From Candidatus Odinarchaeota archaeon (lineage in GTDB: Archaea > Asgardarchaeota > Odinarchaeia > Odinarchaeales > Odinarchaeaceae): 6,064 bases of DNA. The number at the start of each line of letters is the position of its first letter. Within the stretch, counting starts at the first letter, position 1. The stretch is taken from the NCBI GenBank assembly GCA_038826135.1, contig JAWBON010000072.1:1-6064 (forward strand), in the 5' to 3' direction. Below are positions 2 through 6,064 of the stretch, in pieces. Under the pieces are notes generated by a model that was given only the letters and a program-made list of their open reading frames with translations, was not told the DNA's origin and searched no databases. Both the position numbers and the translations under genes were made by a program.

Positions 2-274
2 AAACTCGTAGTTTACTTAGACCTCAGGAGAAGAGGATACGTGGTAAGACCAGGGCTTAAGTTTGGAGCAGACTTCGCCGTATATGAACACGGGCCTGGC
101 ATAGACCACTCCCCGTTCCTAGTTCACGTTACCCCCAGTTCAGCTAAAATCCCGCCTATTGAAATGGTTCGGGCGGGTAGACTTGCTACAACAGTCCGTA
201 AAAAATTTATTATAGCCACCATTAAACAGGGAAAAGAGGCTAGGTACTATGCTTTCTCATGGTTTAAACCATAA
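2..274 (+). CDS. endA: tRNA-intron (splicing) endonuclease, catalytic subunit, C-terminal part; the gene starts upstream of the window
   Basis: The frame is open from nt 2: KLVVYLDLRRRGYVVRPGLKFGADFAVYEHGPGIDHSPFLVHV...TTVRKKFIIA...YYAFSWFKP. This matches the archaeal EndA catalytic domain. The Tyr (DFAVY), His (IDHSP) and Lys (VRKK) triad residues are all present. The GTG at 41 in the ORF track is an internal Val. Confidence 0.95.
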   Translation, partial: KLVVYLDLRRRGYVVRPGLKFGADFAVYEHGPGIDHSPFLVHVTPSSAKIPPIEMVRAGRLATTVRKKFIIATIKQGKEARYYAFSWFKP

Positions 275-2671: not shown

Positions 2672-4348
2672 TCATAAATTCATAATCTTCTCTATATCTT
2701 TATGTGTAACGGTTCCTAATATTTTTTTAGGATACTTCGGATCCACAACAGGTAGAATATCGATGTTTGATATAATTAATTTATGAAGCGCTTCTTTAGC
2801 ATTCTCATCCGGGGTTATTGTAGTAAATTTTCTTGAACAGATTTCAGCTATTTTAATATTTGATTTTAATTCTTCAGGAACAGATAAACCCGCTCTTTTA
2901 TCTATGACGCCTATAAGATCATCGTTATCATCCACGACTGGGAAAAACATTTCTTCAGAATCCCTTATTAATTCCTCGAATCCTCTAATAGTTAAATTAC
3001 CTTGGATCCGCGTAAAACTCGCACTCATAATCTTTCTAACATTTATATGAGAGAATATATCTCGTAATATTTCAGGGATATGCGAATACGAGTATGTTCT
3101 ATCAATCATCTGATTTTCATAAATTGACCACTTACCTGAAATAATATACGCTACAAGCGAGGCTAATATGGCTGGCGCTAAAACAGTGTAACTGGCCGTC
3201 ATCTCAGACACTATTATTATTGAGGCGATGGGTGTTTTAGCTATAGCTGCTATAAAAGAACCCATGCCGCATACTACAAGTATACCAGGTTGAAGCATCA
3301 GTGAAGGGAGAGTTTGCTGTAAAATTATTGCAAACAAGCCTCCTATGAGGCCTCCTATAACAAGAGACGGCGCGAAGTCCCCGCCACTGTTCCCAGAAGT
3401 TACTGTGAAAGATGTTGAAAACATTTTCATCACTATAAAAACAGCTAATATTTGAAGCGGTAACTCGTTATTAATAACTGATTGAATATACCCGTACCCT
3501 GTTCCCACAGCGTAAGGGAATAATATAAAGCATAATGCGATGAAAACCATGCCCAGCGCCGGCTTCAATTTAAAACTAATTCGAATAGCTGTGAAAACTT
3601 TATTCTTTAAGGTCCGAAATAGTGCGGAGAATACGATGCCGGCTAAACCGCAGATGACACCGAGAATAATGAAGAATGGCAGTTCACTAGGTATAAAAAA
3701 GTACACCGGTGTGTTGAAGAGAGTGGACCAGCCTAAAAAACTACAATATAAACCGTATGATATAAAAGTTGCCACTATACACGGTATAAACGCCTCCACT
3801 TCATAGTCTCTAAGGTATAATACCTCGATTATGAAAAAAGCCGCGCCGAACGGGCTTTTAAAAACAGCTGCTAAACACGCAGCGGCTCCGGTTAACATTA
3901 AAAGTTCTCTATCCCTCCGAGTTAATTTGAATCTGCTAGCTATATATGAAGCGAAGCCCCCGCCGATCTGAGCTGCAGGTCCTTCTTTACCTACACTTCC
4001 ACCGATTCCGATCGTGAAAGCGGAGGCTATTATTTTAAGTACTGGAACCCTACGTCGCACACTACTCCTATTATGAAAGGCTCCTATAATAGCGTCTAAC
4101 CCAGATCCGCATACTTCAGGGCTTAAAGTATATGTTACATACCCCATCAGTAAGGCTCCTATGACTGCTATGAAAGGTAGGAGAGTGTACATGGAAAACG
4201 AAAAATTAAATGAGCTGAAAAAATCCGGTTCACCTGGAGCTTTTACAATGTTAAAACCTCCTATTAAACGTAAAAATATGAATGAAAAAAGATCTGATAA
4301 AAAAGTTAAAGTTAGAGCGGAAACACCCCCTACAACCCCCATTATCAC
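2672..4348 (-). CDS. ClC-family chloride channel/transporter with a C-terminal CBS pair; the true start may lie further upstream
   Basis: ClC signature motifs GSGLD, GKEGP (gating Glu), FIIEV, GGDFAP and SIYENQ (central Tyr) are present with many hydrophobic helices. The C-terminus has a CBS pair (FPVVDDNDDLIGVI; LPVVD...ILGTVTHKDI). Confidence 0.95.
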   Translation of the reverse strand: MIMGVVGGVSALTLTFLSDLFSFIFLRLIGGFNIVKAPGEPDFFSSFNFSFSMYTLLPFIAVIGALLMGYVTYTLSPEVCGSGLDAIIGAFHNRSSVRRRVPVLKIIASAFTIGIGGSVGKEGPAAQIGGGFASYIASRFKLTRRDRELLMLTGAAACLAAVFKSPFGAAFFIIEVLYLRDYEVEAFIPCIVATFISYGLYCSFLGWSTLFNTPVYFFIPSELPFFIILGVICGLAGIVFSALFRTLKNKVFTAIRISFKLKPALGMVFIALCFILFPYAVGTGYGYIQSVINNELPLQILAVFIVMKMFSTSFTVTSGNSGGDFAPSLVIGGLIGGLFAIILQQTLPSLMLQPGILVVCGMGSFIAAIAKTPIASIIIVSEMTASYTVLAPAILASLVAYIISGKWSIYENQMIDRTYSYSHIPEILRDIFSHINVRKIMSASFTRIQGNLTIRGFEELIRDSEEMFFPVVDDNDDLIGVIDKRAGLSVPEELKSNIKIAEICSRKFTTITPDENAKEALHKLIISNIDILPVVDPKYPKKILGTVTHKDIEKIMNL

Positions 4349-4625: not shown

Positions 4626-5222
4626 ATGATCAGCTGGTATGATGAAGCGATAATTAGGATTAAAAAACTCTGCAAAGACAGTAATCCTTTGATACTAGAG
4701 GTTGGAGCGGGCTTAGGGCATTTTACATTTAAAATTAAAGGTTATTTTAAAGAGGGGCGGGTGGTTTCAATAGATATAAACCCGGATAACTTAAAACAGG
4801 TATTTTTAAAAAATAGTTTACACGCTAACACGGTTGATTGGCTGATTGCCGACGGTGGAAGCACCCCCTTCAGGAGCCGTGTGTTTAACATAGTAGCAAG
4901 CTCTTTTTCTCTCCAATACTGGGTTAACCCTTTAAAAGTGTTTGATGAAATATCCAGGTTAATAGAATCTGTTGGAAGGTTTCTAATCACGGATCTACGG
5001 AAAGATATGAAGAAAATAACAATTAAGAGAGTAGCGGAATTATCAGCTTTAAATAATCCTGGTGTTTCTCCCGAGGAGGTTGAGAGATTTCTAAATTTAA
5101 GACTAGTGAATTGCTACACACCCCAGCAAATTACGAGAATAGCTAAAAAAAGCCGGCTGAGAAGCTGGAGAGTAACTAGCCGGGAATACGGATTTTACTT
5201 TGAATCCCTGCCAGCTTCTTGA
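4626..5222 (+). CDS. Class I SAM-dependent methyltransferase (substrate unknown)
   Basis: Motif I ILEVGAGLG, acidic post-I VVSIDIN, IADG, FNIVASSFSLQYW and the terminal-strand motif DEISRLI..VGRFLITD. Confidence 0.92.
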   Translation: MISWYDEAIIRIKKLCKDSNPLILEVGAGLGHFTFKIKGYFKEGRVVSIDINPDNLKQVFLKNSLHANTVDWLIADGGSTPFRSRVFNIVASSFSLQYWVNPLKVFDEISRLIESVGRFLITDLRKDMKKITIKRVAELSALNNPGVSPEEVERFLNLRLVNCYTPQQITRIAKKSRLRSWRVTSREYGFYFESLPAS

Positions 5223-5240
5223 ATAATTCTAGGGTTACTA

Positions 5241-5341
5241 TGGTGGGCGGGGAGGGTCTTGAACCCTCGACCTGCGGAGCCTATTAACTTCAGCTTCTCC
5301 GCGTTGTAAGCGCGGCATCATAACCCCTAGACCACCCGCCC
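5241..5341 (-). tRNA. tRNA-Val(UAC), CCA encoded, with a 25-nt intron in the variable region (5296-5272)
   Basis: Minus-strand sequence GGGCGGG TG GTCT AGGGGTTA TGAT G CCGCG CT-TAC-AA CGCGG AG [AAGCTGAAGTTAATAGGCTCCGCAG] GTC GAGGG TTCAAGA CCCTC CCCGCCC A CCA. The acceptor stem (7 bp), anticodon stem (5 bp) and T stem (5 bp) are perfect, and the discriminator is A73. Removing 25 nt gives a standard 76-nt tRNA. Confidence 0.95.
5272..5296 (-). other. Non-canonical tRNA intron (position 45/46) with a relaxed BHB splicing motif
   Basis: The central helix is G40-C41-G42-G43 paired with intron CCGC. The bulges are AG|A and AG|G, and the intron helix is AGCT/GGCT closing a 10-nt loop. Confidence 0.85.
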
Positions 5342-5379
5342 GTTAAAGATAAATGGAATGATTATTTTAAGCATACGTT

Positions 5380-5394
5380 TATTAAAATTTTTCC
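5380..5394 (-). promoter_or_regulatory. Putative BRE + TATA promoter of the tRNA-Val gene (GGAAAAA-TTTTAATA)
   Basis: A purine-rich BRE directly precedes a TATA-like octamer about 39-46 nt upstream of tRNA G1, just after the MBL stop codon. Confidence 0.6.
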
Positions 5395-5401
5395 AGCGAA
5401 T

Positions 5402-6064
5402 TTAATAGACTTCTCCAAGCATATTACATATAATCGAAATATCTTTATTACCATCATAGCTTATATCCATATGCCCTGGCAGAATATATTTCACATCTAA
5501 TTTAGATAACCGCTTAACAGAGTCACTTAACTGTGAGATGTTACCTGAAGGCAGGTCAACTCTACCGAATGACCCGCCGGCGAAAACGGTGTCGCCTGAG
5601 ATTAACAGTTTCTTATCCTCTTCGTAAAGACAGATGCTGCCCATCGTATGCCCTGGTGTGTGAATAACTCTAAAAGTATAAGGTTTAACCTTGATAAGCT
5701 GCCCGTCTTTAAGCGGAGTGTTAACCTTCACAGGTTTAAAAGAGGCCCCGAACATGTCTAGCAGCATCATAACTCTATCAGCTCTTTCAAGAAAAGGAGC
5801 TTCAGCTTCGAAAACACTAACATCCGGGTTGAATTCTTCAAGTAAACGGTTTAATCCCCCGCAATGATCAAAGTGGATGTGAGATAGAATAACGTTAACA
5901 ATTCTATCTGCGTTTAAACCGAGGCTTTTTATCCGACTGTAAAGATAATTTATGTTAACACCTGTTCCGCAGTCAACCATTATAAGTTCATCTTCACCAA
6001 TAAGATAACAGTTCGAATCATATAAAACACCGGGAATAAAGTAAAGATAATCTAGAACCTTCAT
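5402..6064 (-). CDS. MBL-fold metallo-hydrolase (glyoxalase II-like)
   Basis: HxHxDH motif (SHIHFDHCGG), HTPGHT, ISGD and LPGH metal ligands. The ATG falls at the window edge, so the start may extend further. Confidence 0.93.
   Translation of the reverse strand: MKVLDYLYFIPGVLYDSNCYLIGEDELIMVDCGTGVNINYLYSRIKSLGLNADRIVNVILSHIHFDHCGGLNRLLEEFNPDVSVFEAEAPFLERADRVMMLLDMFGASFKPVKVNTPLKDGQLIKVKPYTFRVIHTPGHTMGSICLYEEDKKLLISGDTVFAGGSFGRVDLPSGNISQLSDSVKRLSKLDVKYILPGHMDISYDGNKDISIICNMLGEVY

Follow-up and report, generated by a model that had tools for sequence, protein, structure and literature searches.

The closest described systems are the non-canonical introns of archaeal tRNA genes. Position 45/46 is among the listed non-canonical intron sites of Crenarchaeota, where introns carry BHB motifs or the HBh' motif described there and are removed by (alpha-beta)2 EndA (reviewed in PMC4090602). 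The tRNA-Thr(GGU) gene of Caldiarchaeum subterraneum has a 45/46 intron (PMC3293823). Among Asgard archaea, introns occur in 92-95% of the tRNA genes of Atabeyarchaeia and Freyarchaeia (three complete genomes), often at non-canonical sites, and the tRNA-Val(TAC) gene of Atabeyarchaeia-1 (569375-569482) contains a 33-nt variable-region intron (569421-569453) called by tRNAscan-SE (Valentin-Alvarado 2024, PMC11291895, Supplementary Data 4, row 16). A 2026 census of 90 Asgard genomes describes a wealth of intervening sequences at non-canonical sites, the variable region among them, with an enrichment at BHB-type boundaries, and two EndA paralogues; its main text leaves Odinarchaeia unnamed, and for none of the newly identified sequences does it present splicing as demonstrated in an Asgard cell (bioRxiv 10.64898/2026.10.13.758758).

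The locus analysed here, summarized in Table 1, can be compared with these systems. The window, a 6,064-nt stretch of DNA, is the entire contig C72 of an Odinarchaeum metagenome-assembled genome (G000; 1.26 Mb, 93% complete), and its DNA occurs in hot-spring metagenomes. It holds a tRNA-Val(UAC) gene interrupted by 25 nt. The gene shares the intron position of Caldiarchaeum tRNA-Thr(GGU), while isotype and phylum differ. With the Atabeyarchaeia-1 gene it shares an Asgard host, the isoacceptor, a single short variable-region intron and the HBh' anatomy; mapped here in G017, whose coordinates match the published ones, the Atabeyarchaeia-1 intron lies at 44/45, has all four central-helix pairs and lacks an outer helix. 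The two differ in intron length (33 versus 25 nt), position (44/45 versus 45/46) and the exon nucleotides that are paired (39-42 versus 40-43), differences that may reflect either an independent gain or a shift of the intron. The intron-rich Asgard genes of the preprint likewise have non-canonical variable-region introns in common with Odinarchaeum, which as far as the preprint's main text allows comparison is set apart by about 1.6 introns per gene and by the variable region as its main non-canonical site.

Table 1. Features of the window, with the elements of the tRNA-Val(UAC) intron in 5' to 3' order
Feature	Position	Strand	Basis or remark
EndA catalytic (alpha) subunit gene, 3' half	2-274	+	PF01974, E 1.7e-29
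CLC channel with CBS domains	2672-4348		
Class I methyltransferase	4626-5222		
tRNA-Val(UAC) gene, exons and insert	5341-5241	-	Rfam and ARAGORN
5' exon, tRNA positions 1-45	5297-5341	-	identical in G001 and G002
Anticodon UAC	5308-5306	-	within 5' exon
G40-G43, exon strand of central helix	5302-5299	-	followed by A44-G45, which open the first bulge
Intron at 45/46, 25 nt	5272-5296	-	register scan, shuffle null, orthologous introns
Intron: first-bulge A		-	
Intron: AGCU	5295-5292	-	pairs with GGCU (intron stem)
Intron: 10-nt loop		-	
Intron: GGCU	5281-5278	-	pairs with AGCU (intron stem)
Intron: CCGC	5277-5274	-	pairs with G40-G43 (central helix)
Intron: second-bulge AG		-	
3' exon, tRNA positions 46-76	5241-5271	-	CCA genomically encoded
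Putative archaeal promoter, BRE-like purine-rich run then TATA-like box	5378-5396	-	about 37-46 nt upstream of G1
Metallo-beta-lactamase-fold hydrolase	5402-6064		

The reading favoured here, with a probability of roughly 0.94, is that the tRNA-Val(UAC) gene is functional and carries at 45/46 a short intron that is spliced in cis. Rfam scores the locus at 54.2 bits as a minus-strand tRNA (5341-5244) and places the insert in the variable region, and ARAGORN reads the spliced 76-mer as tRNA-Val(tac) with all four stems and a 5-nt variable loop, bearing out the preliminary description, which had proposed a 25-nt insert at 45/46 whose excision restores a canonical 76-nt tRNA. Its warning that automated annotation may miss or mis-call the gene holds for ARAGORN: without introns, the program recognises no tRNA in the unspliced 101-mer, in intron mode it finds Val(tac) with a 27-nt intron wrongly set at position 38, and at a lowered threshold its output is mostly noise. 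The default miss and the misplaced intron mean that the genome could seem to be without a GUA reader, even though some 4,800 GTA codons in the long ORFs of G000 require one. This gene is the sole Val(UAC) copy in the assembly, other BLAST matches of the mature sequence being the GAC and CAC paralogues, and within that assembly it is not a silent duplicate of an intact gene, the outcome named beforehand as damaging. The insert is no assembly artefact, because a contig from an independent study (run X3) spans the whole gene with the insert (window 4992-5426). Contigs from two runs labelled metatranscriptomic, probably DNA, and from two DNA runs have neither a joint nor left-out letters at the insert and have no bearing on splicing. 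At 25 nt and with no such Rfam match, the insert is not a group I or II self-splicing intron or a homing-endonuclease intron.

The insert is organised as a splicing motif. The central helix G40-C41-G42-G43/CCGC has four of four Watson-Crick pairs in G000 and sits two nt from each cut, as it does in the further Odinarchaeum genomes G001 and G002, where a C to U change opposite G40 leaves three Watson-Crick pairs and a G-U. The intron stem AGCU/GGCU has three Watson-Crick pairs and one G-U, and the 3-nt bulge at the 5' site is closed by an intron helix h' of 4, 4 and 3 bp in the three species. The outer exon helix h has none of its five pairs in any of them, which sets the junction apart from the strict hBHBh' form; because this helix is absent, the junction belongs to the relaxed HBh' class of archaeal EndA-type motifs, with the 4-bp central helix, 3-nt bulge and 4-bp intron stem counted just as the preliminary description had them.

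The register is chosen by this geometry. Because AG flanks both ends of the insert, excisions at 43/44, 44/45 and 45/46 yield an identical mature sequence in G000; only the 45/46 register forms the full central helix and intron stem, and a parser that tries all motif-bounded excisions ranks it first. Both the equivalence created by the repeat and the choice of 45/46 had been anticipated, the slipped bulge considered below had not. Among 20,000 shuffles of the insert, an equally good motif arises at a frequency of 0.0003 and a looser one (four pairs and a 3-bp stem) at 0.002, allowing any register within +/-3 and using a criterion set after the motif was seen. In G001 the intron ends in AA, which breaks the repeat; of the three registers, 45/46 alone leads to a single product shared by all three species.

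Conservation points in the same direction. The exons of G001 and G002 are identical to those of G000 over 76/76 nt, while the flanking DNA of G000 and G001 is only about 74% identical. The orthologous introns measure 21 nt (G001) and 20 nt (G002), with diverged loops and a retained motif, and the G001 intron stem carries a two-sided change from U-G to G-C. A BRE/TATA-like motif lies upstream of the gene in all three genomes among adjacent bases that differ, conservation that suggests a promoter. Gene order around the locus is the same in G001, and the flanks contain no inserted element. The Val(UAC) gene was not found in G003, a 130-contig draft of a further Odinarchaeum genome, so that three orthologues are compared. 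The intron is conserved and almost certainly spliced out.

Three other explanations together account for only a few chances in a hundred. The largest share, still very small, falls to splicing at other cuts, either through a slipped bulge, with a 21-nt excision, or in one of the sequence-equivalent registers. The intron starts with AAG and the bulge can slide, A44-G45 pairing with intron CU in a 6-bp helix that is nearly isoenergetic (-31.5 versus -32.0 kcal/mol); the slipped register keeps a 4/4 central helix and comes second in the parse. At 70 C, ViennaRNA prefers the slipped helix, with pair probabilities of 0.70/0.46 compared with 0.16-0.40 for the intron stem. In G000 the exact HBh' fold makes up the smaller part of the computed ensemble, and in the congeners the central helix is likewise a minority fold (0.36 and 0.09), all in models that leave out tertiary contacts and enzyme binding. 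The precursor as a whole is no more stable than its shuffles (z -1.63) and its MFE structure is not a cloverleaf; folding energy alone therefore does not discriminate. What speaks against the slip is its product, a tRNA with a non-canonical variable region and a cloverleaf score of 34.1 rather than 41.4, and a second 'bulge' that is base-paired. Since the slipped cut would leave a variable region of 9 nt, the enzyme would have to choose the 4-bp geometry. The 43/44 and 44/45 registers lack the intron stem and would alter the mature sequence in G001.

Somewhat less probable again is retention of the insert as an unusually long variable arm in a class II-like tRNA-Val. The long arm of class II tRNAs is a conserved feature of about 11-20 nt in Leu and Ser (Sec) tRNAs and is compatible with the anticodon stem. 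A cloverleaf with an extra-arm hairpin is indeed close in energy to the HBh' fold (-34.1 versus -32.0 kcal/mol at 37 C, -11.2 versus -12.1 at 70 C). Yet the retained variable region would be 30 nt long, against about 13-17 in the spliced Leu and Ser tRNAs of G000, in a tRNA of Val isotype, and the insert varies from 20 to 25 nt across congeners with identical exons. The conserved 3' end of the insert can pair with anticodon-stem sequence and keeps that stem from forming (pair probability 0.02-0.12 in the G000 precursor), a competition that a class II arm does not show. Moreover, Val(GAC) of G000 has a normal short loop, as do the Val tRNAs of eight other Asgard families. Least probable of all is a silent gene, either a pseudogene or the scar of an integration, with a different tRNA decoding GUA. 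A second Val(UAC) copy could be missing from an assembly that is 93% complete, but exons kept without a change in three species beneath a conserved promoter-like motif, flanks without an inserted element, and the single-contig genome G002, whose one UAC match is the orthologue of the interrupted gene, all argue against it.

For the favoured reading, a spliced intron at 45/46, we infer transcription, cleavage, ligation and the exact cut sites from the known pathway. The precursor would refold locally, with the intron CCGC displacing the 5' strand of the anticodon stem and pairing with G40-G43. A44, G45 and the first intron A would then bulge out above the 4-bp intron stem, while the unpaired AG and G46 would form the second, loop-like site of the HBh' motif. 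An (alpha-beta)2 EndA would cut after G45 and after the last intron G, its CSL lysine supporting the use of relaxed substrates, and RtcB would ligate the exons, allowing the product to refold into a normal cloverleaf that reads GUA codons. In every test run, the mechanism put forward in the preliminary description (EndA-type, HBh', 45/46, canonical product) agrees with the results.

The enzymes for such a pathway are present. All four Odinarchaeum genomes encode two EndA paralogues. The alpha subunit aligns with Aeropyrum pernix EndA (3p1z; E 6e-42 for the G001 protein) without gaps across the Crenarchaea-specific loop (CSL), and CSL Lys44 is retained, in G000 as well; with this loop and its lysine, EndA is able to cleave relaxed motifs (PMC3241643). 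The second paralogue is without the catalytic His motif and non-catalytic. RtcB is encoded in G000. The host is thus predicted to encode a broad-specificity (alpha-beta)2 EndA with the CSL lysine along with RtcB, and EndA is the presumed processing enzyme of this intron. The EndA fragment in the window is 93% and 89% identical to proteins of the Odinarchaeia MAGs RPA3 and J65_bin.29, and the 5' half of its gene lies on contig C48. The position of this gene 5 kb from the tRNA is no evidence of a special link.

The intron is one of many in this genome. Among the 43 tRNA genes found in G000 (Asn, Cys and initiator Met were not recovered), 37 are interrupted (86%) and six are intron-free; a hand count gives about 68 introns, or about 1.6 per gene. 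The automatic parser over-splits single introns when unpenalised, so a penalty was applied in a second parse of the ambiguous genes, which were also inspected by hand. Twenty class I genes carry variable-region introns, nine at 45/46 (Val-TAC, Val-CAC, Ala-GGC, two Glu, two Pro, Ile-TAT and Met), six at 46/47, three at 43/44 and two at 48/49, making the variable region the main non-canonical intron site. Congeners share these introns, with diverging loops. At 45/46 the intron strand tracks its own exon in 34 of 36 pairs, against a host-swap mean of 21.8 (3 of 100,000 permutations, nine paralogues), and over all variable-region introns 72 of 80 central pairs form, against a mean of 38.6, in a test that is partly circular, since the motif guided the choice of boundaries, and that treats non-independent paralogues. 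These counts show that the central-helix motif is the rule for variable-region inserts in G000. The survey of other tRNAs and Val orthologues proposed at the outset has in this way strengthened the case for the intron, with a motif kept by congeners, and removed its claim to rarity: a variable-loop intron had been called notable, whereas 45/46 is a standard site, an Asgard Val(TAC) case is published and nearly half of the genes here have such introns. The feature is real but ordinary, as its position and intron-rich Asgard tRNA genes are already in print and most genes here are interrupted; what the locus adds is one non-canonical tRNA intron and a corrected annotation.

Val genes elsewhere in the Asgard archaea present a mixed picture. 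Inserts at 45/46 occur in Val(GAC) of family f2, of the same order, with only two of four central pairs, and in all three Val anticodons of family f16, with two to four central pairs and long intron stems; family f13 has its Val insert at 44/45. The Val genes recovered from f5, f6, f8, f9, f12, f21, f22 and f28 have no insert and a normal short loop. The phylum-wide pattern search behind these cases misses Val genes with anticodon-arm introns and under-samples intron-rich families, and frequencies are not derivable from it.

The tRNA-Val(CAC) gene (G000:C42:8027-8148, plus strand) has two stacked 45/46 introns of 23 and 23 nt, and its orthologues L027, L139 and L157 have pairs of 24 and 22, 20 and 21, and 21 and 22 nt. 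The central helix of the downstream intron pairs with the CCGC of the upstream one, and both helices have four of four pairs in the four genomes; the downstream intron is therefore cuttable only while the upstream intron is present. Nested, ordered introns are already known in archaea (PMC3978253). The genes for tRNA-His (C66, 37/38) and tRNA-Leu(TAG) (C75) may be similarly stacked, less clearly.

Whether Odinarchaeum is a further intron-rich Asgard lineage in its own right is an evenly balanced question. The proposal joins the share of interrupted genes and the number of introns per gene to a variable region (43/44 to 48/49) that is the main non-canonical hot spot and to stacked introns with a forced removal order, as in Val(CAC) across four genomes, and no such description was found in the literature consulted. 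Seen in context, the locus indicates that Odinarchaeum, like Atabeyarchaeia and Jordiarchaeia, needs a broad-specificity EndA to mature most tRNAs, a dependence relevant to how tRNAs were spliced before eukaryotes confined the process mostly to 37/38. If the proposal is true, the Val(UAC) intron offers the simplest substrate for studying how an Asgard EndA chooses its register on a slippery HBh' motif that competes with the anticodon stem. More attention is due to the lineage-level pattern and to the stacked Val(CAC) introns than to the single Val(UAC) locus.

Several further observations concern the window and the genome. Within the EndA alpha gene, contigs C48 and C72 have an overlap of about 125 nt, so the two are neighbours in the genome. 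Positions 347-2662 hold five ORFs (98, 230, 128, 72 and 220 aa) without a confident Pfam family, the 230-aa one having a zinc ribbon at its N terminus and a long stretch that resembles a coiled coil; positions 347-2662 are syntenic with G001. The protein genes of the window have no inserts of at least 10 nt relative to G001, a comparison in which an intron common to both species would not show. A SCARNA7 match in Rfam falls in AT-rich intergenic DNA and is due to chance (21 bits against a 65-bit cut-off), and a sigma-70 promoter scan was set aside as inapplicable to an archaeon. The RtcB gene (G000:C16:2586-5357, plus strand) is a 995-codon open frame whose Pfam match breaks off after model position 50 and resumes about 470 codons later, a pattern that suggests an intein.

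Other tRNAs are unusual as well. A tRNA-Ile with anticodon UAU (G000:C68:3104-3250, minus strand) occurs in all four Odinarchaeum genomes and in G005, of the same order. G000 yielded no Ile2(CAU) gene, and TiaS (PF08489) was not found in these five genomes but was detected in four of four control archaea. AUA is the commonest Ile codon in G000, with about 15,000 occurrences. Ile(UAU) without TiaS is known for Nanoarchaeum and Korarchaeum, and no literature report of it in Asgard archaea was found. The tRNA-Phe(GAA) gene (G000:C11:1828-1930, minus strand) has a 29-nt variable-region insert that is kept in four genomes; at the register that restores the tRNA it has one of four central pairs, and an alternative 6-bp helix with one mismatch is possible. 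Finally, tRNA-Gly(TCC) and tRNA-Gly(CCC) (G000:C104:1683-1777 and C45:637-755) have an A52-C62 mismatch in the T-stem once their 53/54 introns are removed, and in Gly(CCC) this mismatch is present in G001 and G002 too.
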